Below, one piece after another: positions 23,144-42,363 of a DNA stretch of 64,000 nt. The DNA is taken from positions 42,087 through 106,086 of the forward strand of contig CACMIP010000001.1 in assembly GCA_902613795.1 (NCBI GenBank), given 5' to 3'. The translations under genes and the position numbers were made by a program. The stretch is from an uncultured OCS116 cluster bacterium (lineage in GTDB: Bacteria; Pseudomonadota; Alphaproteobacteria; Rhizobiales; TMED25). A model generated the notes under the pieces. That model was not told the DNA's origin. It searched no databases and saw only the letters and a program-made list of their open reading frames with translations. Numbering within the stretch: the stretch's first letter is position 1; every line of letters starts with the position of its first letter.

Positions 23144-25123
23144 ATGAATGACCTTTTTGAAAAATTACCTGAGCCGAATTCAGAAAATATAAAAGTTAAA
23201 AAGACCAAAAAAACCAACGGTGCTGACTACACCGCAAAAAATATAACAATATTAGAAGGCTTAGAACCTGTTAGAAAAAGACCAGGAATGTACATAGGTG
23301 GTGTAGACTCAAGAGCCCTTCATCATCTATTTAATGAGGTTATTGACAATGCGGTTGACGAGGTCGTTGCTGGGCACGCAAGTGAAATCAATGTGAGGCT
23401 CAATGGAGATAACGAATTATTGATAACTGATAACGGACGCGGTATCCCAATTGACTCGCATCCAAAGTTTCCCAATAAGTCAGCCTTAGAGATTATCCTC
23501 ACTACCCTTCATGCTGGGGGTAAATTTGATAATAACTCATATAAAACCTCAGGTGGGTTACACGGGGTTGGTATATCCGTAGTGAATGCATTATCTGAAT
23601 ATTTGTCTGTAGAAGTTGTACGCGAAAAGTCACTATATGGACAAGATTTTGCACGCGGTAAACCCACGACAAAACTTGAAAATAAAGGCAAAACCAAAGA
23701 ACAAAATGGAACTACAATTCGTTTCAAGCCAGACAACGAGATATTCGAGGATGGGCTTGATTTTAATTCAGATGAGCTTATCGAAATACTTAAAACAAAA
23801 GCCTATCTTGTTTCTGGTTTAAAAATAACTTTTACTGATGCAAGCGATACAATTGACCCCAAGCAAGTACAATTTTATTTTCCAAATGGAATTGCAGATG
23901 TCATTGAGGAAAATGCCCGCCAAAAAGACTTGATAATTAACTCACGTTTTACTGGATCGTCATCAGCCAAATCTTCAGCAGGTAAAGTTGAATGGTCCTT
24001 CATATGGGCAGCAGATAGAAAAAATAAAATAAAATCTTTTTGTAATACAATTCCAACTATAAACGGAGGCACGCACGAAAATGCTCTTAAAAGTGCCATC
24101 CTCAAATCAATCAAACGCTACGGCGACATAATTGGTATAAGAAATACAAAAATCATTACGCTTGATGACCTAATAGAAAGTATGGATGGTATATTATCTA
24201 TTTTCATTGCAGATCCAGAGTTTCAAGGCCAAACAAAAGAAAAATTAAGTTCAAAAAATGCGACCACTCTTACAAGTAAAATTATCGAGGATAACTTTGA
24301 TTATTGGTTATCAGAAAATCCAACCGACGCAGAAAAATTAATCAGCTTTCTTATTAACACAGCAAATACGAGAATTAATAGCAAACACGAAAAGGATTTA
24401 AGCCGAAAGTCTGCCTTAAGAAAACTGAGGCTTCCTGGAAAATTAGCAGATTGTCTCGAAGATAAAGCTGCTGGTACTGAATTATTTATCGTTGAAGGTG
24501 ACTCAGCAGGTGGATCTGCAAAACAGGCTAGAGATAAAAAGTATCAAGCCGTCCTGCCCTTACGGGGTAAAATATTAAACATTGCGAGCAGTAGCGCACA
24601 AAAATATTTTCAAAATCAACAGCTGAAGGATTTAGTTCAGGCCCTAGGCTGCGGAACATCTCAGACTTACGATGATGGAAATTTAAGGTATGATAAAATT
24701 ATTATAATGACCGATGCTGATGTTGATGGGGCCCACATAGCATCTTTATTGATCACGTTTTTCTATATTGAGATGCCTGAATTAATAAATAACGGGCATT
24801 TGTATGTCGCTGTTCCGCCCCTTTATAAATTATCAGCTAATAATAAAATATTCTACGCCATTGATGACGACGATAGAGAAAGAATAATAAAAGAGCATTA
24901 CAAGAAAAGCGAAAAGATTGACATATCACGTTTCAAAGGTTTAGGTGAAATGCTTCCAAATCAGTTAAGAGAAACAACAATGAATAAAACGACAAGAAAG
25001 CTATTAAAAATAACAATGGATAGCTATTCCTCGGACCAATACGCAAAAACTATCGATGAACTAATGGGTAATAAACCAGACGCAAGATTTAAATTCATTC
25101 AAGAAAATGCAGACTTTAATTAA
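23144..25123 (+). CDS. parE: DNA topoisomerase IV subunit B
   Basis: GHKL ATPase and Toprim motifs (RKRPGMYIGG, DNGRGIP, EGDSAGGSAKQARD, IMTDADVDGAHI). At 659 aa it lacks the long GyrB insertion, which favours ParE over GyrB. Confidence 0.8.
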   Translation: MNDLFEKLPEPNSENIKVKKTKKTNGADYTAKNITILEGLEPVRKRPGMYIGGVDSRALHHLFNEVIDNAVDEVVAGHASEINVRLNGDNELLITDNGRGIPIDSHPKFPNKSALEIILTTLHAGGKFDNNSYKTSGGLHGVGISVVNALSEYLSVEVVREKSLYGQDFARGKPTTKLENKGKTKEQNGTTIRFKPDNEIFEDGLDFNSDELIEILKTKAYLVSGLKITFTDASDTIDPKQVQFYFPNGIADVIEENARQKDLIINSRFTGSSSAKSSAGKVEWSFIWAADRKNKIKSFCNTIPTINGGTHENALKSAILKSIKRYGDIIGIRNTKIITLDDLIESMDGILSIFIADPEFQGQTKEKLSSKNATTLTSKIIEDNFDYWLSENPTDAEKLISFLINTANTRINSKHEKDLSRKSALRKLRLPGKLADCLEDKAAGTELFIVEGDSAGGSAKQARDKKYQAVLPLRGKILNIASSSAQKYFQNQQLKDLVQALGCGTSQTYDDGNLRYDKIIIMTDADVDGAHIASLLITFFYIEMPELINNGHLYVAVPPLYKLSANNKIFYAIDDDDRERIIKEHYKKSEKIDISRFKGLGEMLPNQLRETTMNKTTRKLLKITMDSYSSDQYAKTIDELMGNKPDARFKFIQENADFN

Positions 25124-25148
25124 TATAAAATGAACAATAACGTTTAAC

Positions 25149-26165
25149 ATGTTAGGTGATACTGATTACATAGCACTTCTAGAGCAATTGGATGAAGGCG
25201 TCATAATAGTGTCTGCAAACTATAACGTGCTTTATGGCAATAAAACTGCCATAGGTTATTTTGGGGATAAGTTATTAGATGTACCAATATACAACCTAAT
25301 TAGAAATAGTGAAGTTATTGATGCAATAAATGACTCTGCTGAGATCAATATTTCGTTTCCTTATACTTCAAGTGATGGAATATATAAACTTCAGCTTTCC
25401 TATAACCATAAGCCAGGAAAACCAGGTATCTTAATAATAAGCAATCAAACAGAAGAAGAAAATTTTGATAGTATAAGGCGTGATCTTATTGCAAATGTAA
25501 GTCATGAACTTAGATCTCCCTTAACCAGCATTTCAGGCTTTATTGAAACTTTGCAGAACGAAAAACTAAGTCAAAAACAATACTCTAAGTTTCTTGATAT
25601 CATGAGCGAGGAAGCAAATAGAATGGATAGAATTATATCTGATCTATTATCCCTTTCAAAAATAGAAATTAATGAATTTATTGAACCTCAAACTGAAATA
25701 AATCTTATGGAGCCGATTTTGCTTGCAAAAAATGCACTTGAGTTAAGGGCAAATGAGCTTGGTAAAAAAATAATTGTGGACCAAAAATTGGATATAGCTC
25801 CAATGATAAAAGCAGACGCGGACCAAATCATTGAGGTATTTCATAATCTTATTGATAATGCCATAAAATATTCAATTGAAAATAGTACAATAAAGATAAT
25901 TTTAGAGGTGATTGATGATATCAATCCAAAACAGATGAGTGTTACGGTTGAAAATATCGGTACGGGGATTGGAGAAGAGCATCTACCTAGGCTTACGGAA
26001 AGGTTTTATCGCGTTGATAAAGCCCGATCTCGAAATGTCGGGGGTACTGGGCTTGGCCTTGCAATAGTTAAACACATATTATTAAGGCATTCAGCAGATA
26101 TGGAAGTATCAAGCCAAGTAAATGGTAAAACAAGATTTACTGTTCTCTTCCCTATTTATGGTTGA
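25149..26165 (+). CDS. phoR: Phosphate regulon sensor histidine kinase PhoR, soluble (no TM segment)
   Basis: N-terminal PAS-like region, H-box ANVSHELRSPLTSISGF, and an HATPase domain (GGTGLGLAIVKH). Starts 25 nt after parE, so there is no room for a membrane anchor. Confidence 0.8.
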   Translation: MLGDTDYIALLEQLDEGVIIVSANYNVLYGNKTAIGYFGDKLLDVPIYNLIRNSEVIDAINDSAEINISFPYTSSDGIYKLQLSYNHKPGKPGILIISNQTEEENFDSIRRDLIANVSHELRSPLTSISGFIETLQNEKLSQKQYSKFLDIMSEEANRMDRIISDLLSLSKIEINEFIEPQTEINLMEPILLAKNALELRANELGKKIIVDQKLDIAPMIKADADQIIEVFHNLIDNAIKYSIENSTIKIILEVIDDINPKQMSVTVENIGTGIGEEHLPRLTERFYRVDKARSRNVGGTGLGLAIVKHILLRHSADMEVSSQVNGKTRFTVLFPIYG

Positions 26166-26177
26166 ATGATTATGCAA

Positions 26178-26195
26178 TTGTAATGTTTTTGTAAT
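26178..26195 (+). promoter_or_regulatory. Pho box (two 11-bp-phased direct repeats) upstream of arsC
   Basis: TTGTAAT-gttt-TTGTAAT. Same 7+4 unit as upstream of pstS and pstC. Lies 65 nt before the first possible arsC start. Confidence 0.6.
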
Positions 26196-26259
26196 ATTTG
26201 CAAAACAGTATTGAGAGGATATCCTAACAACTAGATAATTACAAATAAACTCTAATTAT

Positions 26260-26760
26260 TTGAATGGATTACTTAAATTGAAAATTCTGAACTGTTTATT
26301 TTTGTGTACCGGAAACTCATGTCGATCAATAATTGCTGAATCGATAATGAATAAAATAGGAAAAGATAAATTTCGTGGCTTTTCTGCGGGTTCATCACCA
26401 GTTGGGTTTGTAAATCCAATGAGCATTTCGTTGCTTGAAAGCTTAGGTCACGACGTAAGTGGCTTAAGCTCTAAAAGCTGGGATAAATATGCATCTGCAC
26501 CTCACATGGATTTTATAATTACAGTATGTGACAACGCGGCTGGAGAGGCATGTCCCGTTTGGCCTGGTAAACCAATAAGTGCACATTGGGGTGTGGCAGA
26601 TCCATCTTTGGTGGCAGGAAGTAACGAGGTTAAATATCAGGCATTCCTTGATACATATTTAGTTTTTGAAAAGCGAATAAAAAAACTGATTAGTCTGACG
26701 GATAACGATAACATAGTGACGAGTGATATTTTACAAAATATTACGATTGCGATGCGGTAG
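26260..26760 (+). CDS. arsC: Arsenate reductase, LMW-PTPase / thioredoxin-coupled type
   Basis: P-loop CTGNSCRS (CX5R) plus the Cys pair VCDNAAGEAC. There is no in-frame ATG upstream of the catalytic motif, so the start must be TTG (26260 or 26278). Confidence 0.8.
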   Translation: MNGLLKLKILNCLFLCTGNSCRSIIAESIMNKIGKDKFRGFSAGSSPVGFVNPMSISLLESLGHDVSGLSSKSWDKYASAPHMDFIITVCDNAAGEACPVWPGKPISAHWGVADPSLVAGSNEVKYQAFLDTYLVFEKRIKKLISLTDNDNIVTSDILQNITIAMR

Positions 26761-26766
26761 ATTCGA

Positions 26767-27426
26767 ATGACAGTGCAAGATTTTAAAAAATATTTTATTG
26801 AATTTTTAGGCACCTCAATCTTATTGGCCACTGTGATTGGCTCTGGCATAATGGGAGAGATGTTATCTGATGGCAATGACGCAATTGCACTTTTAGCAAA
26901 CACGATTGCAACAGGCGCAATACTCTATGTATTGATCACAATGTTTGGGGCCATCTCTGGTGCCCATTTTAATCCCGCCGTATCACTGGTATTTCTTATC
27001 AAGAGGGAAATTGGTTTTAATATATTCATTTTATACATTGTTGCACAAGTGCTTGGAGGGCTGCTTGGTATGCTAATTGCCCACTTTATGTTTGATATCG
27101 ATTTAATACAGTACTCATCAAAAATTAGAAGTGGGCCTTCGTTGTGGTTTTCAGAATGCATCGCCGCATTTGGGTTGATATTGACCATCCTGTTTACAAT
27201 AAAAGAAAATATAAAATCTGTCGCCAGCTCGGTAGGTCTGTACATAACTGCCGCTTATTGGTTTACTGCCTCAACATCCTTTGCAAATCCTGCAGTAACA
27301 ATTGCTAGAACATTCACAGATACTTTTTCTGGGATTCATTATTCAGGAACTATATATTTCATAATTGCCCAGTGTTTTGGCGCATTATTGGCTCTCATTA
27401 TCTATAACGCCATTTATAAAAAATAA
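26767..27426 (+). CDS. MIP-family channel (aquaporin/aquaglyceroporin, AqpS-like context)
   Basis: Two NPA boxes (HFNPAVS, FANPAVT) and six TM segments. Starts 6 nt after arsC. Confidence 0.85.
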   Translation: MTVQDFKKYFIEFLGTSILLATVIGSGIMGEMLSDGNDAIALLANTIATGAILYVLITMFGAISGAHFNPAVSLVFLIKREIGFNIFILYIVAQVLGGLLGMLIAHFMFDIDLIQYSSKIRSGPSLWFSECIAAFGLILTILFTIKENIKSVASSVGLYITAAYWFTASTSFANPAVTIARTFTDTFSGIHYSGTIYFIIAQCFGALLALIIYNAIYKK

Positions 27427-27476
27427 CCTTTTGAGTCACTATCCACTAACCTGTTGATAAGTATATCAATCATATT

Positions 27477-27505
27477 TTGTAATATTTTTGTAATACAAAT
27501 GTCAC
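27477..27505 (+). promoter_or_regulatory. Pho box array (three phased repeats) upstream of pstS
   Basis: TTGTAAT-attt-TTGTAAT-acaa-ATGTCAC. The 7+4 periodicity is the same as the E. coli CTGTCAT-type Pho box. Confidence 0.7.
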
Positions 27506-27582
27506 ATTCATGCAAAGAAAACAAAACATACCAGTATCGTACGCAAGACGTATTTTTTTTTAAATCAAATCGGAGAAAAACT

Positions 27583-28665
27583 ATGAGAAAACTATCTGCT
27601 CTTGCTCTCGCCGCTTTAGCTTCATTTATATTAGCCCCTTCTAGTGAAGTCGAAGCACGAGATCAAATTAACATTGTTGGTTCATCAACAGTTTATCCAT
27701 ACGGTACTGTGAATGCCCAAAGATTAGGTGAGTCAGGCTATAAAACACCAACATATAACCCAATTGGCACCGGTGGTGGAATGAAAGCATTCTGCGCGGG
27801 CGTGGGAGTTGACTATCCTGATATTACCGGAGCATCTCGTCCAATGAAAGCCAAAGAGGCAAAGCTCTGTCAAGAAAATGGCGTAACAAACGTGATCGAG
27901 GTTATGTGGGCTAATGATGGTATTACATTCTCGCACTCAAATGAAGCTGTAGAATTTGAGCTTACAAGAGAAGAAATATTCACAGCAATGGCTGCAAAAG
28001 TTGTCGTGGATGGTGAAGTTGTTGAAAACCCATATACATCATGGAATCAAATAAACTCAAGCTTGCCAGATTATAAGATTGAAGTATTAGTTGCGCCCCC
28101 AACCTCTGGTACACGAGATGCTTTTGATGGAAAAGTCATGGAAGCTGGATGCACTCTTGAAGCGGTCACAGGCAGCGATGATGGCTGCACAGATTATCGT
28201 GAAGATGGACGTATCATTGAAATGGGTGAAAACGATACATTAATTGTTCAGAAACTTGTCGAAGACGTCGAACGTTTTGGTTACTTTGGTTACTCCTATC
28301 TTAAGGATAACGGAGATAAACTTCAGCCGTCCAAAGTCGAAGGCGTAATGCCATCAGGCGCTACAATTGCATCATACGAATATCCAATGGCCAGACCACT
28401 CTTTATCTACCTAAAAGCTGACCATATTGGTGTTATACCTGGTATTCAGGAATTTGCGCAAATGATGGTTAGTGATAATGCTATAGGCGATAATGGCTAT
28501 TTAACAAAGATAGGTGCAGCACCTATGGTGCCAGAGCTTGTTGATAGAGTAAGGAATATCACTGATAGCTTAGACCCAATGGGTTTTGATATTGCTGACT
28601 GTGCGAACAAAGTTCATCCTCTTAAAGATGCAGGTTACGCATTTTCTAGCGGACTTTGTAAATAA
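27583..28665 (+). CDS. pstS: Phosphate ABC transporter substrate-binding protein PstS
   Basis: Start reset to ATG 27583 (GGAG RBS 8 nt upstream; signal peptide MRKLSALALAALASFILAPSS). GSSTVYPY motif. Confidence 0.9.
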   Translation: MRKLSALALAALASFILAPSSEVEARDQINIVGSSTVYPYGTVNAQRLGESGYKTPTYNPIGTGGGMKAFCAGVGVDYPDITGASRPMKAKEAKLCQENGVTNVIEVMWANDGITFSHSNEAVEFELTREEIFTAMAAKVVVDGEVVENPYTSWNQINSSLPDYKIEVLVAPPTSGTRDAFDGKVMEAGCTLEAVTGSDDGCTDYREDGRIIEMGENDTLIVQKLVEDVERFGYFGYSYLKDNGDKLQPSKVEGVMPSGATIASYEYPMARPLFIYLKADHIGVIPGIQEFAQMMVSDNAIGDNGYLTKIGAAPMVPELVDRVRNITDSLDPMGFDIADCANKVHPLKDAGYAFSSGLCK

Positions 28666-28677
28666 TTATCTAAATAG

Positions 28678-28700
28678 AAAGAGGGGCATAGCCCCTCTTT
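28678..28700 (+). terminator. GC-rich hairpin between pstS and pstC (attenuator/terminator or RNA-stability element)
   Basis: AAAGAGGGGC-ata-GCCCCTCTTT, 13 nt after the pstS stop. No long U tract follows. Confidence 0.5.
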
Positions 28701-28759
28701 CAGCATCTAATAGCGTTTATTCCCTAATAGTGATTGATTAAATTCTGCAAAAATATATT

Positions 28760-28799
28760 TTGTAATATTTTTGTAACATTTTTGTAAGATTTGTTTACT
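28760..28799 (+). promoter_or_regulatory. Pho box array (four phased repeats) upstream of pstC
   Basis: TTGTAAT-attt-TTGTAAC-attt-TTGTAAG-attt-GTTTACT. Ends 40 nt before the pstC ATG. Confidence 0.7.
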
Positions 28800-28838
28800 C
28801 ATCACTTTTAAAACTATCACAAGCAAGGAGTATGAATA

Positions 28839-30275
28839 ATGATCTATATATCACTTTTGCTTGTATTTTTGGTTTCCTATTCTTTTTATTTCATTGGCAA
28901 GAAAAGAGCCCTCAACATTTCGACTCAGCGAGATCAAACCCTCTCTGCTTTACCAGATTATTATGGCTATTATTCGGTAATTATCATACTAGTACCAGCT
29001 ATATTGATTTGGTTCTTTCTTTTGATTTTTAAATCAAATTTCCAGGAAATATATGTAATGTCACCCTTTTTGTTCCCTGATATTGACACATGGAGCGCAA
29101 GTAAAACCGGTTTAATAATGAATAAAATTACAAACTTGTCATATATTGTAAATTTATCTGACATTGATTTGTCCGTGGGGGATAAATCAATTTTAAAAAT
29201 GGCGAGTGATAGTGAACTTATTGCGGCAAAAAACCTGGCGAGTTTTGATAAAATATATGGTTGGGCCAATGTTACTCTATTCATAATACTTCCTGTTTTT
29301 TTAGGTTTCATCGCAACAAGATCGATTTCAAGTAAACTTAACGCGCAACCTATCGTGGAACGCGTAATATCTTATGTGATAAAAGGTAGTTCCTACATAG
29401 CAATATTAATAACATTTGGAATATTTTTCTCACTTATATTTGAAGCTGTAAATTTCTTCAGATACGTAAATTTTGTTGATTTTTTCTTCAATACCTCTTG
29501 GAATCCAAATAGAGCTTTTGTGATCAATGCTTCCGAAGGGTTTGATCAAGAGGCGTTGAAAGATGCCTTCGGATTTATTCCTCTCCTGACAGGTACAATT
29601 TTAATTGCCACTGTTGCAATGATCGTGGCAATTCCGCTTGGGCTGCTCACTGCTATATATTTAGCTGAATACGCATCTACGAGAGTGAGGGACATAGCAA
29701 AACCAATAATAGAAATTTTGGCTGGTGTGCCGACTGTTGTCTATGGTTTCTTTGCCGCACTATCACTTGCACCTTTTATAAAAGATGTTGGTGAAAGCGT
29801 TGGTTTACCTGTTTCAGCAGAAAGTGCTTTAGCAGCAGGTCTTGCGATGGGCGTCATGATCATACCATTTGTATCATCATTGAGTGACGACGTAATAAAG
29901 GCGGTGCCAAACTCTCTGAGGGAAGGCGCTTATGCATTGGGTGCCACAAAATCAGAAACCATAAAAAAAGTCGTTCTTCCTGCGGCGCTTGCTGGAATCA
30001 TGGGATCATTTTTGTTGGCCATTTCTCGAGCAATTGGTGAGACAATGATAGTGGTGATGGCAGCAAGCCTTCGAGCAAATCTAACATTTAATCCTTTAGA
30101 GCCTGCTACAACAATAACAACACAGATAGTAACAAGCCTCATCGGAGATGTCGAATTTGATAATCCAAAAACACTAGTCGCATTTGCACTAGGACTAACG
30201 CTATTTATCATGACACTAATACTTAATGTAGCTGCAATACTTATCGTTAAAAAATATAGAGAAAAGTATGACTGA
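28839..30275 (+). CDS. pstC: Phosphate ABC transporter permease PstC (long N-terminal extension form)
   Basis: 478 aa. C-terminal core with the SRAIGETMIV EAA-type loop. AAGGAG RBS. Confidence 0.9.
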   Translation: MIYISLLLVFLVSYSFYFIGKKRALNISTQRDQTLSALPDYYGYYSVIIILVPAILIWFFLLIFKSNFQEIYVMSPFLFPDIDTWSASKTGLIMNKITNLSYIVNLSDIDLSVGDKSILKMASDSELIAAKNLASFDKIYGWANVTLFIILPVFLGFIATRSISSKLNAQPIVERVISYVIKGSSYIAILITFGIFFSLIFEAVNFFRYVNFVDFFFNTSWNPNRAFVINASEGFDQEALKDAFGFIPLLTGTILIATVAMIVAIPLGLLTAIYLAEYASTRVRDIAKPIIEILAGVPTVVYGFFAALSLAPFIKDVGESVGLPVSAESALAAGLAMGVMIIPFVSSLSDDVIKAVPNSLREGAYALGATKSETIKKVVLPAALAGIMGSFLLAISRAIGETMIVVMAASLRANLTFNPLEPATTITTQIVTSLIGDVEFDNPKTLVAFALGLTLFIMTLILNVAAILIVKKYREKYD

Positions 30276-31518
30276 TTTATCCAAACGACTAGCCTCTGAG
30301 AAAAGATTCAAATATTTTGCTATGTTTGCAATGTGTTTATCACTGTTCTTTGTCGTTATCCTTATGCTGAAAATATTTACAACTGGAAGCGGAGCTTTTA
30401 TTCGAACAACAATTGAAGCGAGTGTTTATTTCGATCCCAGCGCAATTGAAGTCACTAACGAGTCCTCTGTAAAGGCGATAAACAAAGCATCTTATGTAAA
30501 TCTTGCGGATCAAATTGTAAAAGATAATCATCCCAATCTTAGTGATGAAAAATTTATTTTGGTGCGAGAAATGTATACACGTAAATTTGACTTTCAGCTA
30601 AGAGATTATATAGCAAGTAATCCCAACATAATTGGGAAGACAGTCACGATGGAAATCACCGCTTCTTCAGACTTAGATCAAATCGTTAAAGGAAATTACC
30701 CAAGAGATGTGCCAGAGGCACAGAGAAAAATCAATGATTACCAATTATCGGTGCTTGATAGTTTGGATGCCGATGGTAAAATATCTTCAACTTTTAATCT
30801 TTGGTTTTTTACAAATGGTGATTCAAGAGATCCCGAGACAGCCGGTATACTTGGTGCCTTGATGGGATCATTCTATGCTCTTTTGATATGCTTTTCATTT
30901 GCATTCCCCGTGGGTCTATTAGCATCAATTTATCTAGAGGAATTCGTGCGACCAGGAAAATTAACGGATTTTATAGAGGTTAATATTAATAATTTAGCTG
31001 CTGTACCATCAATTGTTTATGGACTGCTTGGTTTGGGTATGCTCATAGGAGTATTTGGAATGCCATACCAGGTACCACTAGTTGGTGGCCTAGTGCTAGG
31101 ATTTATGACATTACCAACCATAATTATTGCATCTAGGGCCTCATTAAGAGGCGTGCCTCCATCTATTCGAGAGGGCGCCCTCGCCGTTGGTGCTACAAAA
31201 ACTCAGACGGTTTTTCATCACGTGATACCCCTATCCTTGCCTGGATCCCTGACTGGAACGATTATTGGAATGGCGCAAGCCCTTGGTGAAACCGCGCCGT
31301 TGCTCATGGTTGGTATGGTTGCATTTGTCATGGATATACCTGGTGGAGCGCTCGATCCAGCTACCGGACTACCATCCCAAATTTATCTTTGGTCAGAGAG
31401 TGCGGAGAGAGGTTTTCTGGAGAAAACCTCTGCTGGCATTATGCTCTTACTAGGTTTCTTAATAATAATGAATACAATTGCTGTAATAATAAGAAGAAAA
31501 TTGGAGGTCAAATGGTAG
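30268..31518 (+). CDS. pstA: Phosphate ABC transporter permease PstA
   Basis: 416 aa. [14 protein letters not shown] loop. Overlaps the pstC end by 8 nt. Confidence 0.9.
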
Positions 31519-32282
31519 AAAACGATACTCTCGCTTTACAAACTAATAATGTATATGTGCATTATGGAAGTAAGATGGCAATAAATAACGTAGCTGTTGA
31601 TTTCCATAAAAATCAAGTAACTTCACTTATTGGACCATCTGGCTGCGGAAAATCAACATTTCTAAGATGTCTAAATAGAATGAATGATGTGATAGATATT
31701 TGCAAAGTTCAAGGTGAGTTTCATCTGAATGGAATTGATATTTATGGTCCAGAAATTCAAGTCGAAAATCTTCGCAAGCAGGTTGGTATGGTATTTCAGA
31801 AACCCAATCCTTTTCCAAAAACTATATATGAAAATGTTGCTTATGGACCAAAGATTCATGGTCTTGCATCTACAAAATCAGAGCTTGATGATATCGTCAA
31901 GGATACTCTAAACCGTGCCGGCTTATATACTGAAGTAAAGGATAGATTGGACGACATAGCGACCGGTCTATCCGGTGGCCAGCAACAAAGATTGTGTATT
32001 GCAAGAGCGATTGCAATAAAGCCAGAGATAATACTTATGGATGAACCGTGCTCTGCATTGGATCCAATTGCAACTGCCGTTATTGAAGAGCTGATAAACG
32101 AATTAAAAGAAAACTACACTATTGTCATTGTTACACACTCGATGCAGCAAGCTGCAAGAATATCAGATAAAACTGCATATTTTCATTTGGGTGAAATGAT
32201 TGAATTTGGCATAACTTCAAATATTTTTACAAACCCTAATCATGAAATGACTGAAGCTTATATTTCTGGTAGAATAGGATAG
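31512..32282 (+). CDS. pstB: Phosphate ABC transporter ATP-binding protein PstB
   Basis: Start reset to ATG 31512 (MVENDTLAL), overlapping the pstA stop. [30 protein letters not shown]. Confidence 0.95.
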
Positions 32283-32291
32283 GAGATAGAA

Positions 32292-32981
32292 ATGACACAA
32301 CACATTAATTCAGCATTTGATGCAGGCTTAGCTGACGTAAATATGCAAATAGCAAAGCTCGGAGCGCTCGCTGAGACGCAACTCGATAATTCATTAACTG
32401 CCTTGAAAGATAAGAATATAAAAAAATTTGACTCAATAATAGAGCGCGATAAGAAACTTGACGAGTTAACGGCAGAGGTAAGCTCATCAGTTTTTGAGCT
32501 TATCGCACTATGGTCACCCATTGCTTATGATCTACGAAGTTTATTGGTTGCCGACAGAGTTGGTGCAATTCTTGAGAGGGTCGGGGATTACTCAAAAAAT
32601 ATAGCAAGACGCAGCCAAGTCATTGTGACAGAAGAGAGCTTTGATAGGCTTCCCGTTAATATAGTTGGACTTGGGGAGCACGTCCAAGGACTCCTTCACA
32701 GAAGCCTTGATGCATACATGGAAAATGATCTGCAAAAGGCAATGAATATCTGGGAGTCAGATATTGATACGGATCGCCTATATCTTAGTATTTTTAAGGA
32801 GATTGTCAGCTACATGTCAGATAATCCAGACGATGCTAAAATGTTAACTCACATGATTTTTATATCGAAGAACCTTGAAAGAGTTGGGGATTACACGACA
32901 AGTATCGCAAAGCAAACATACTTTCTCTCAGAGGGGGAATATCCCGATACTAAAAGACCTAAGGCAATGACAACATATTGA
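32292..32981 (+). CDS. phoU: Phosphate signalling complex protein PhoU
   Basis: Two PhoU repeats (ILERVGDYSKNIA and NLERVGDYTTSIA). Confidence 0.9.
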   Translation: MTQHINSAFDAGLADVNMQIAKLGALAETQLDNSLTALKDKNIKKFDSIIERDKKLDELTAEVSSSVFELIALWSPIAYDLRSLLVADRVGAILERVGDYSKNIARRSQVIVTEESFDRLPVNIVGLGEHVQGLLHRSLDAYMENDLQKAMNIWESDIDTDRLYLSIFKEIVSYMSDNPDDAKMLTHMIFISKNLERVGDYTTSIAKQTYFLSEGEYPDTKRPKAMTTY

Positions 32982-32988
32982 GGTTTGA

Positions 32989-33675
32989 ATGATGCTGGCA
33001 TTAGTTGCCGATGATGAAAAAAATCAATTAGAATTAATATCTTTTCATCTAGAAAAAAACGGATTCGATGTTATAACGGCAGAAGATGGTGAATCTGCAT
33101 TTGAGCTAATTGTTGAGCGAAAACCCGACATAGTAATTCTAGACTGGATGATGCCTAATGCCTCAGGTATCTCTATATGCCGCAGAGTCCGATCATCCAA
33201 AGAGCTCAAGAGTCTGCCAATTATAATCTTAAGCGCTAGAGGTGAAGATATTGATGCTTCACATGGGTTATTATCAGGTGCTGACGACTATATAACAAAG
33301 CCCTTCTCGCCTATCGAATTAATCGCAAGAATAAAATCACTCTTAAGAAGAACAACAAAAAATTTAGAGTCTTCCATAATTGAATATGGTGATTTAACCT
33401 TAGATACTGGTAAAAAAGTTCTAAAAAGTAATGATAAAGACATAAGAATTGGGAAAACTGAATATAAGATTATTACTCTTCTAATGTCGAGACCGGAGAA
33501 CGTATTTTCCCGTGCTCAGATAATTGATTACGTTTGGGAAAATAATCCAGAAATAGACGATAGGACAATTGACGTGCATATCAGCCGTCTCAGGAAAACC
33601 CTAAGTGATAGCTATAATGGAAAATGTAAAATTAACACTGTGCATGGGTTTGGTTATTGTATAAGCAATAATTGA
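32989..33675 (+). CDS. phoB: Phosphate regulon response regulator PhoB
   Basis: Receiver domain (VILDWMMPNASG) plus OmpR/PhoB winged helix (IDVHISRLRKTL). Confidence 0.9.
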   Translation: MMLALVADDEKNQLELISFHLEKNGFDVITAEDGESAFELIVERKPDIVILDWMMPNASGISICRRVRSSKELKSLPIIILSARGEDIDASHGLLSGADDYITKPFSPIELIARIKSLLRRTTKNLESSIIEYGDLTLDTGKKVLKSNDKDIRIGKTEYKIITLLMSRPENVFSRAQIIDYVWENNPEIDDRTIDVHISRLRKTLSDSYNGKCKINTVHGFGYCISNN

Positions 33676-41250: not shown

Positions 41251-42363
41251 TTAACCAATTGGCCTGAATATAGACCCGCCACTCATCGCTGATTGGATAC
41301 CTGTTGTAGTAGGATATGAAATATCTAAATTTAATAGGCACCTTACCGCTAGATAAGCAAAAGCTTCAGACTCAACATACCTACTGCTGATACCAATACT
41401 GTCTGATGTAATTACCTCTTTTTTTGATAATTCTGAAATTTTTTTCGTTATGTATTTATTTTTACTACCGCCGCCGCATATAATAATTTTGTTGACATCA
41501 GTTGGAAAATATTTCACAGCGTCAACTATTGTATTTGCCGTAAAATAACTTAAAGTTGAAATTAAATTTTGAGGTGATTCTTCGCAGCTTTTAAGATATT
41601 TATGGAAATAATTTCGATCTAATGATTTTGGTGGTGCTTGATTAAAAAATTCGTCACTCATTAATATTGCAAGAAATTTACTATCTACATCTCCCTGTAA
41701 TGCCAATCGACCTTCATGGTCAAATTCTTCTGAAAAATACTTAATCATCATATCATCTATCAAACAGTTGCCAGGGCCAGTATCGCATGCAATGACGCAT
41801 TCGCCGTCAATGTAAGTCATATTTGATATACCCCCAATATTCACAACTGCTATTGGTCCCTGAAAGGCTTTACTAAATCGTGCGGCGTGATATATTGGAG
41901 TAAGAGGGGCGCCTTGACCACCATTTAATATATCGCACATTCTAAAATTAAAAATAACAGGGATATTTAACATATTCGATAAATATTTTGGATCTCCAAG
42001 TTGTATTGAAATTTTATTTAATGGACTGTGATATACTGTCTGACCATGGTAGCCGATTAAATCTACTTTTAATGATCGGTCAGTATTCTTCTCTAAAATT
42101 TCATTGATAGCAGATAGATTTAGGTCGGAAAGAGATCTTTTCAATTTATGTATGTCAGCCCAGCTTATGTTTTTTTCGTGAAATTGTTCTGATGCCTCTT
42201 TTAATTTAACTTTTATATCAACCGGATAGTCAATTGAGCAATTCAAGATATAATCATAAACCATAAATCCGTCAGTTTGTATTAAAGAAGCATCGATACC
42301 ATCCATGGAGGTTCCGCTCATTAAACCAATAGAATAAAATTTTTTTACATTTTTTTTACACAT
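41251..42363 (-). CDS. anmK: Anhydro-N-acetylmuramic acid kinase
   Basis: N-terminal GLMSGTSMDGIDAS motif. 370 aa. Divergent from tyrS, as in many proteobacteria. Confidence 0.85.
   Translation of the reverse strand: MCKKNVKKFYSIGLMSGTSMDGIDASLIQTDGFMVYDYILNCSIDYPVDIKVKLKEASEQFHEKNISWADIHKLKRSLSDLNLSAINEILEKNTDRSLKVDLIGYHGQTVYHSPLNKISIQLGDPKYLSNMLNIPVIFNFRMCDILNGGQGAPLTPIYHAARFSKAFQGPIAVVNIGGISNMTYIDGECVIACDTGPGNCLIDDMMIKYFSEEFDHEGRLALQGDVDSKFLAILMSDEFFNQAPPKSLDRNYFHKYLKSCEESPQNLISTLSYFTANTIVDAVKYFPTDVNKIIICGGGSKNKYITKKISELSKKEVITSDSIGISSRYVESEAFAYLAVRCLLNLDISYPTTTGIQSAMSGGSIFRPIG

Follow-up and report, generated by a model that had tools for sequence, protein, structure and literature searches.

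Organization of the locus

The 64-kb stretch of contig CACMIP010000001.1 analyzed here (positions 42,087 to 106,086; hereafter the window) holds, on the plus strand between 23144 and 33675, the gene order parE-phoR-[arsC-MIP]-pstS-pstC-pstA-pstB-phoU-phoB as called with NCBIfam, that is, a pst/pho phosphate locus in which an arsenate reductase gene (arsC) and a gene for a MIP-family channel stand between phoR and pstS. Genes in the window were called with NCBIfam models, with Pfam applied to selected open reading frames (ORFs), and contigs of relatives were compared under the locus labels L001-L124. These calls agree with the initial annotation of the window, in which the order phoR-pstSCAB-phoU-phoB was described as broken between phoR and pstS by arsC and MIP. 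The signatures it named, a CTGNSCRS motif in arsC and two NPA motifs in the channel encoded 6 nt further on (gap at 26761-26766), were likewise found. We consider it likely that arsC-MIP is an arsenate-detoxification cassette, located at the phoR-pstS junction in a subset of the marine PS1 clade and predicted from its sequence context to be driven by PhoB without an ArsR encoded nearby. The features on which the argument draws are as follows.

23144-25123, plus strand: parE (NCBIfam)
25149-26165, plus strand: phoR, phosphate-sensing histidine kinase, 338 aa (TIGR02966 phoR_proteo, E = 1.5e-81)
26178-26195, plus strand: Pho-box dimer TTGTAAT-GTTT-TTGTAAT, predicted site of phosphorylated PhoB (PhoB~P) for arsC-MIP (exact pattern, position weight matrix (PWM), conservation)
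26278-26760 (ORF 26260-26760), plus strand: arsC, putative LMWP-type (thioredoxin-type) arsenate reductase (Pfam LMWPc, 1JL3 alignment, N-termini of relatives)
26767-27426, plus strand: MIP channel of the AqpS/AqpN (NIP-like) type, 219 aa (Pfam MIP, two NPA motifs)
27450-27460, plus strand: CCTGTTGATAA, a remnant resembling the phoR 3' end of relatives that lack the pair, right-hand junction copy (alignment with L105 and other junctions)
27477-27505, plus strand: pstS Pho boxes, three units of 7 nt repeating every 11 nt, TTGTAAT-ATTT-TTGTAAT-ACAA-ATGTCAC (pattern, PWM)
27583-28665, plus strand: pstS, phosphate-binding protein (TIGR02136, E = 1.2e-36)
28677-28701, plus strand: strong hairpin 3' of pstS (RNA fold -21 kcal/mol, z = -4.65)
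28760-28788, plus strand: pstC Pho boxes TTGTAAT-ATTT-TTGTAAC-ATTT-TTGTAAG (pattern, PWM)
28839-30275, plus strand: pstC, phosphate ABC transporter (TIGR02138, above cutoff)
30268-31518, plus strand: pstA, phosphate ABC transporter (TIGR00974, above cutoff)
about 31512-32282, plus strand: pstB, phosphate ABC transporter, 256 aa (TIGR00972, above cutoff; length from orthologous contigs)
32292-32981, plus strand: phoU (TIGR02135, E = 6.9e-49)
32989-33675, plus strand: phoB, response regulator predicted to bind the Pho boxes (TIGR02154, E = 2.7e-79)

The MIP protein of the window was found identical on marine metagenome contigs and in the metagenome-assembled genome (MAG) GCA_002167385.1, and a 91%-identical homologue is labelled 'PS1 clade' in UniRef; on this evidence, the window belongs to an alphaproteobacterium of the marine PS1 clade.

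A Pho box precedes arsC

The repeat TTGTAAT-GTTT-TTGTAAT at 26178-26195 starts 12 nt after the phoR stop codon. Exact matches to TTGTAAT-N4-TTGTAAT are confined, across the 64 kb, to 26178 (upstream of arsC) and 27477 (upstream of pstS); pstC is preceded by two overlapping, near-exact copies, at 28760 and 28771. This pattern search agrees with the earlier observation that the unit before arsC also precedes pstS and pstC, with the qualification that the pstC copies deviate slightly. When up to two mismatches to the repeat were allowed, the window gave nine matches where 2.6 would be expected, a count that 100 shuffles never attained. Each TTGTAAT unit shares five of seven positions with CTGTCAT, and the 7-nt direct repeats recur on an 11-nt period as in the proteobacterial Pho box. 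Together with the canonical CTGTCAT half-site found in two relatives (see below), this direct-repeat architecture agrees with the identification of the repeat as a Pho box made at the outset.

We scored the arsC site with an 18-nt PWM trained solely on the pstS and pstC promoter sites of three PS1 species, with all arsC sites left out. The site reached 20.5 bits, and no other non-training sequence on the two strands of the window scored as high; the best scores in 200 first-order Markov simulations had a mean of 13.8 bits, with 21.05 reached once. As for the rarity of the motif near unrelated genes, the PWM scan of the 64 kb returned no intergenic match of at least 9 bits beyond the spacers before arsC, pstS and pstC, all matches of that strength outside these three pst-locus spacers being intragenic. 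The highest-scoring of the intragenic sites, TTGGAATATTTTTCTCAC, lies inside pstC (29416-29433, 16.1 bits).

Conservation of the box and of the gene pair

Comparison with relatives placed arsC-MIP inside the pst locus in four further lineages. The order phoR-arsC-MIP-pstS is found in L087 (MIP 91% identical to that of the window), in L093 (MIP 77% identical) and in L096-L099 (ArsC 68% identical), and L089 (MIP 80% identical) has the order parE-arsC-MIP-phoR-pstS. A metagenome scan with PstS added two more pair-bearing contigs, L101 and L123. A Pho-box dimer lies upstream of arsC in all four relatives (L087, L093, L096 and L089; 15-23 bits), with the sequences TTGTAAT-GTTT-TTGCAAT, TTGTAAT-ATTT-TTGCAAT, CTGTCAT-ATTT-TTGCAAC and CTGTCAT-ATTT-TTGTAAT; the canonical CTGTCAT half-site is the one present in L089 and L096. 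When the five arsC upstream regions were aligned, the box formed the densest run of invariant columns in a spacer that has otherwise diverged, the other conserved stretch being that around the start codon.

The pair also has a different address in the family. In a sixth lineage (L007/L090/L100, MIP 72-73% identical, 'Rhodobiaceae bacterium MED766'), arsC-MIP lies outside the pst locus (L007:5387-6657), where it follows a gene for a Y-family polymerase (IMS) and neighbors a divergent MarR-family gene.

Insertion at the phoR-pstS junction

On two PS1-family contigs, L104 and L105, phoR directly adjoins pstS, and L105 also shows parE upstream; over pstS-pstC, a third contig, L107, shares 97% identity with L105, and it ends short of phoR. 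By blastn, the pair-less L105 matches L093 at 83% over parE-phoR and at 90% over pstS-pstC, and a segment of ~49 bp of L105, comprising the phoR 3' end and Pho-box units 1-2, has a match on each side of the 1.3-kb insert that carries arsC-MIP in L093. Judged from these alignments, arsC-MIP is an insertion at the phoR-pstS junction that is present in some members of the PS1 family and absent from others, and because the ~49-bp segment flanks the insert on both sides, the arsC Pho box arose by duplication of the pstS promoter junction at insertion. In the window itself, the right-hand junction copy consists of CCTGTTGATAA (27450-27460) followed by the pstS box, and outside the box the similarity between the two junction copies of the window is not significant (p about 0.24); the duplication claim is based on L105 versus L093 and on the multi-lineage alignment. 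The later conservation of the duplicated box argues for a function.

We also considered a recent foreign acquisition of arsC-MIP, which was rejected, given that the GC content at 26000-27500 (0.35-0.40) equals that of the flanks in an organism of ~36% GC.

ArsC and its start codon

The arsC product holds the sequence LCTGNSCRS, i.e., a P-loop of the form CX5R(S/T) with the nucleophilic Cys10 and Arg16, and aligns to the CTGNSCRS of Bacillus subtilis ArsC (1JL3). The equivalents of the relay cysteines Cys82 and Cys89 are kept (itvCdnaageaCP in the window, vtlCgdaa-dkCP in 1JL3), with a one-residue insertion between the second and third relay cysteines relative to 1JL3, and so is the DP motif of the general acid Asp105 (hwgvaDP versus hwgfdDP). 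The protein passes the Pfam LMWPc cutoff of 23.2 bits (54.8 bits, E = 1.6e-14). On these grounds it is predicted to act as a thioredoxin-coupled arsenate reductase of the pI258/B. subtilis ArsC family.

The first in-frame ATG of arsC (26347) sits 3' of the catalytic loop, and in-frame TTG codons occur at 26260 and 26278, in keeping with the earlier remark that the gene has no in-frame ATG before this loop and must start at TTG. The TTG at 26278 agrees with the N-termini of relatives that have an ATG 9-10 residues before the catalytic cysteine and is probably the start codon, with the TTG at 26260 as the alternative. Automated calls differ on this point: metagenome gene callers begin arsC at the internal ATG 26347 and yield products of 137-138 aa without CTGNSCRS (L001, L003-L006, L087), the NCBI call is 166 aa long from TTG 26260, and one ENA cluster is 160 aa long from TTG 26278. 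Surveys of arsC that rely on internal-ATG calls may thus misjudge the gene, the catalytic cysteine being cut off.

The MIP channel and its genomic company

The channel matches Pfam MIP at 90.3 bits (E = 2.1e-25) and carries its two NPA motifs as HFNPAVS and FANPAVT, with a conserved arginine after the second (FANPAVTIAR). Its best match among solved structures is the rice metalloid channel NIP2;1 (E = 4.6e-10), with AQP1 nearly equal (E = 1e-9), and it is consistent with a place in the bacterial AqpN/NIP-like clade that the literature describes.

For the company kept by homologous channels, we examined 79 other alphaproteobacterial genomes with MIP homologues of 53-64% identity, these being among the matches listed in one genome scan. 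Among these listed matches, arsR lies within 3 kb of the MIP gene in 54 of the 79, and in 50 of those it is upstream on the same strand; an LMWP-type arsC usually stands between arsR and MIP, and most of the genomes have an LMWP- or Grx-type arsC adjoining. Given this linkage, the family is, as far as gene neighborhoods tell, that of the AqpS-type arsenite channels of ars operons, for which conductance of As(OH)3 is predicted, and ArsR control would be its usual state. With arsR near MIP in 54 of the 79 listed genomes, the loss of ArsR would therefore be the derived state.

Absence of arsR from the locus

For the ArsR search, we derived a hidden Markov model (HMM) from 54 neighbors of homologous MIPs, a seed set contaminated by fused ArsR-ArsC ORFs. 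The HMM found no ArsR-like ORF of at least 50 aa in the 64-kb window, where its sole match was arsC itself, a weak one stemming from this ArsR-ArsC contamination, and none in the PS1-family loci L002, L007, L087, L089, L090, L093, L096 and L100. Pfam, in turn, gave no ArsR-type helix-turn-helix domain in ten window ORFs of 112-219 aa (arsC, MIP and eight others). Both searches bear out the initial statement that no arsR-like gene is present in the window.

Pho-box-like repeats upstream of other ars operons

We scanned the 79 other loci (1.7 Mb; again drawn from the matches listed) with the generic pattern [CT]TGT[CA]A[TC]-N4-[CT]TGT[CA]A[TC]. With up to two mismatches, nine matches fell between -200 and +100 nt of the first gene of an ars/aqpS operon, where the rate over the whole loci predicts 1.4, an enrichment of about six-fold at operon starts; with up to one mismatch, 6 of the 17 matches in the 1.7 Mb sit within 1.1 kb upstream of MIP. 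These figures hold for the loci among the matches listed. In unrelated Alphaproteobacteria, Pho-box-like repeats were located just upstream of arsR-arsC-aqpS at six positions.

L047:991-1008: Pho-box-like repeat upstream of arsR-arsC-aqpS
L074:5102-5119: the same
L075:5408-5425: the same
L011:5060-5077: the same
L030:5112-5129: the same
L073:5067-5084: the same

Several such repeats are perfect, e.g., CTGTCAT-TGAT-CTGTCAT in an Ahrensia MAG, and most of the six are followed by an ATATCC...GGATAT inverted repeat resembling an ArsR operator. This arrangement suggests that some Hyphomicrobiales may place their ars operons under dual control by PhoB and ArsR, with PS1 as the ArsR-less end of a range.

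Proposed mechanism and alternatives

Phosphate limitation is the condition of greatest arsenate influx. From the gene content of the locus, we propose that low phosphate would activate PhoR and lead to phosphorylation of PhoB, that PhoB~P dimers would then bind the direct repeats at 26178-26195, and that the arsC-MIP bicistron would be transcribed along with pstS and pstCAB. No stable hairpin was found between MIP and pstS, and in the absence of a terminator before pstS the arsC-MIP transcript may run on into that gene. Arsenate is known to enter through Pst, here the induced transporter; by analogy with their families, ArsC would reduce it to As(III) through its cysteine relay, and As(OH)3 would leave down its gradient through the MIP channel. 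With no ArsR gene close by, the predicted signal for the module is phosphate status and not intracellular arsenite. The claim of the initial annotation that the module is PhoB-dependent rather than arsenite-sensing thus stands as the best-supported reading, in view of the conservation of the box in relatives and the insertion polymorphism, and it stands as a prediction, one that comparative genomics supports well.

Several observations nevertheless weigh against PhoB control, and they bear on three other explanations of the locus. In a Pho promoter the box takes the place of the -35 element, with a -10 element some 10 nt downstream, and no clear -10 element could be assigned 3' of the arsC box: the hexamers 13 nt past it (TATTGA in the window, TATTAT in L087) are inconsistent across relatives, many -10-like hexamers occur in such AT-rich sequence, and a sigma-70 scan of the region gave 20 sites versus 15.9 expected. 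The spacer between phoR and arsC holds no terminator-like hairpin and parE and phoR are only 25 nt apart, and read-through from parE-phoR may give constitutive expression. The arsC box was, moreover, born by duplication of the pstS promoter within the ~49-bp segment, so its presence could be historical instead of selected, and the presumably non-functional remnant CCTGTTGATAA beside the right-hand copy is also still recognizable. Outside the pst locus, the pair of L007/L090/L100 has just a weak box, TTGTAAT-AAAA-TTTTAAT (13.2 bits). Much of this would fit an arsC box passively left over from the duplicated junction, with arsC-MIP expressed mainly by constitutive read-through from parE-phoR. 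We regard such a relic as unlikely, given that the two box units are nearly invariant where ArsC is just 68-77% identical and the downstream spacer has diverged. In addition, L089 keeps the box before arsC though its upstream gene is parE and not phoR, and it shares the variant CTGTCAT-ATTT-TTG with L096, which suggests that the box travels with the arsC-MIP cassette.

The arsR search in this genome covered 64 kb only, and an ArsR encoded elsewhere might also control the pair, in which case PhoB activation would be combined with arsenite-relieved repression. Consistent with this, the arsR-led operons at L011, L030, L047, L073 and L074 are preceded by Pho-box-like repeats and then ATATCC...GGATAT, and the window contains a perfect 8-bp palindrome, GGATATCC (26216-26223), the only one between the Pho box and arsC, which resembles half-sites of putative ArsR operators in other genomes. 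We judge this dual control improbable for the window: the palindrome is conserved neither in L087, the 91% relative, nor in the other relatives, among which no conserved inverted-repeat operator was found, the window and the PS1-family loci searched yielded no ArsR-like ORF, and SAR11 genomes with the same pair hold no other arsenic genes (PMC6426599). A role in phosphate starvation unrelated to arsenic, e.g., a low-molecular-weight phosphatase acting on a phospho-substrate next to a channel for glycerol or small solutes, would accord with the ArsC score of 79.1 bits against the NCBIfam equivalog TIGR02691 arsC_pI258_fam (E = 3.4e-22), which is below its cutoff of 174.3 bits, with a best solved-structure match annotated just as 'low molecular weight phosphatase family protein', and with the promiscuity of MIP channels. 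The score under the cutoff places the protein, by sequence, in a divergent alphaproteobacterial subgroup, annotated 'arsenate reductase ArsC' in source databases. The cysteine relay of thioredoxin-coupled ArsC is complete, most of the other genomes among the matches listed have close homologues of both genes in arsR/arsC operons, and the MIP finds its best solved structure in a metalloid-conducting NIP, AQP1 being nearly as good; we therefore find a non-arsenic role very hard to credit. PhoB-driven arsenate detoxification remains the account that we favor.

Relation to known systems

The closest counterpart of the pair is found in SAR11. According to Giovannoni et al. 2019 (PMC6426599), ecotype 1a.3 has just two arsenic genes, LMWPc_ArsC and an adjacent downstream AqpS-related aquaporin, which were proposed as an arsenic-resistance module ('arsenic toxicity resistance module'); arsC of strain HTCC7211 was 2.3-fold up under P starvation, and the frequency of arsC in SAR11 genomes was inversely related to ocean phosphate. 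HTCC7211 (1a.3) thus resembles the window in the identity, order and shared strand of its two genes and in having neither arsR nor other ars genes, and both belong to marine oligotrophic Alphaproteobacteria. The window differs in that its pair forms part of the pst/pho operon, where phoR and pstS enclose it, and has a Pho box of its own; for SAR11, the consulted passages of PMC6426599 describe neither a regulatory site nor a genomic link to pst. The novelty implied by the initial annotation was accordingly too high, given that an ArsR-less ArsC-aquaporin module with arsC induced by P starvation was known from SAR11 (PMC6426599) and that arsenic genes under P limitation or PhoB had been described as well (PMC11665274, PMC4563254, PMC7533571), and its description of the locus holds.

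In the arsR-aqpS-arsC-arsH operon of Sinorhizobium meliloti, AqpS replaces ArsB (cited in PMC6426599 and PMC6138428). As predicted for the window, As(V) is reduced by ArsC and As(III) leaves through a MIP channel; unlike that operon, the window has no adjacent arsR or arsH, shows the order arsC-MIP, and is predicted to be controlled by PhoB and not ArsR. Control of arsenic genes by PhoB and Pho boxes has been described for aioBA of Halomonas HAL1 and for aio and pst1/pho1 of Agrobacterium tumefaciens (PMC4563254, PMC7533571, PMC3834237). These arsenite oxidizers share with the window arsenic genes beside pst/pho, a Pho box in the arsenic-gene promoter and a dependence on the phosphate two-component system that for the window is predicted. 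Their arsenic islands are large and include a second pst/pho copy dedicated to them, their targets are arsenite oxidases, and ArsR and AioXSR are involved; unlike them, the window has a minimal reductase-channel pair in its pst/pho locus. In marine cyanobacteria, P limitation induces arsenic-detoxification genes (e.g., Crocosphaera arsB), which are used as P-stress markers (PMC11665274); unlike the window, these organisms employ ArsB/Acr3 pumps and SphR/PtrA regulators, with no integration into the pst operon. Our literature search found no paper on a Pho box upstream of arsC/aqpS, on an arsC-MIP insertion into a pst operon or on the phosphate/arsenic genetics of PS1, and the paper on the HIMB59 phosphate island does not mention arsenic. 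In its position and predicted regulation, the pair in the window is a variant of a module and a principle that were both known.

Where ocean gyres are depleted of phosphate, arsenate can be many times more abundant than phosphate (PMC6426599), and every high-affinity phosphate importer therefore also imports arsenate. If our reading is correct, a detoxification pair wired to Pho and lacking an arsenic sensor would be a compact genomic answer to this influx, and it would offer a mechanism, at the level of the promoter, by which arsC of SAR11 is weakly induced upon P starvation. Presence or absence of the cassette in the PS1 family is a possible marker of adaptation to waters with low P and high As:P, and, judging by the Pho boxes before ars operons that include arsR, arsenic resistance may be gated by phosphate status more widely than annotations show. 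Going further, and offered as a possibility more than an expectation, a PhoB layer on AqpS-type ars operons may be old and widespread in Alphaproteobacteria, in line with the six-fold enrichment given above; streamlined marine oligotrophs such as PS1 (and perhaps SAR11) would then have dropped ArsR, keeping a mobile, population-variable 'Pho box-arsC-aqp' cassette that carries its PhoB site along and is wired only to phosphate.

Other features of the locus

The N-terminus of PhoR is non-hydrophobic in translation (window 25149-25450), and the alignment with Escherichia coli PhoR starts at residue about 105; the protein appears to have no membrane anchor, i.e., to be a cytoplasmic PAS-kinase form. 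A search of 25000-29000 against Rfam at E up to 1 returned no match and thus no known leader or riboswitch in this segment. None of 200 shuffles was as stable as the hairpin at 28677-28701, which is likely, from its predicted fold, an intra-operon terminator or attenuator after pstS. L087 shares both this hairpin and the pstC Pho boxes with the window, and L089, L093 and L096 have another hairpin after pstS and no second set of Pho boxes.

A further group of contigs, L102, L103 and L124 (also L106 and L108), encodes PstS/PstC 80-90% identical to those of the window and PhoR just about 34-57% identical. These contigs have a GC content of about 32-35% and the Pho-box variant CTTTAAC-ATAT-TTGTAAC, a possible sign that marine lineages have exchanged pst transporter genes horizontally.

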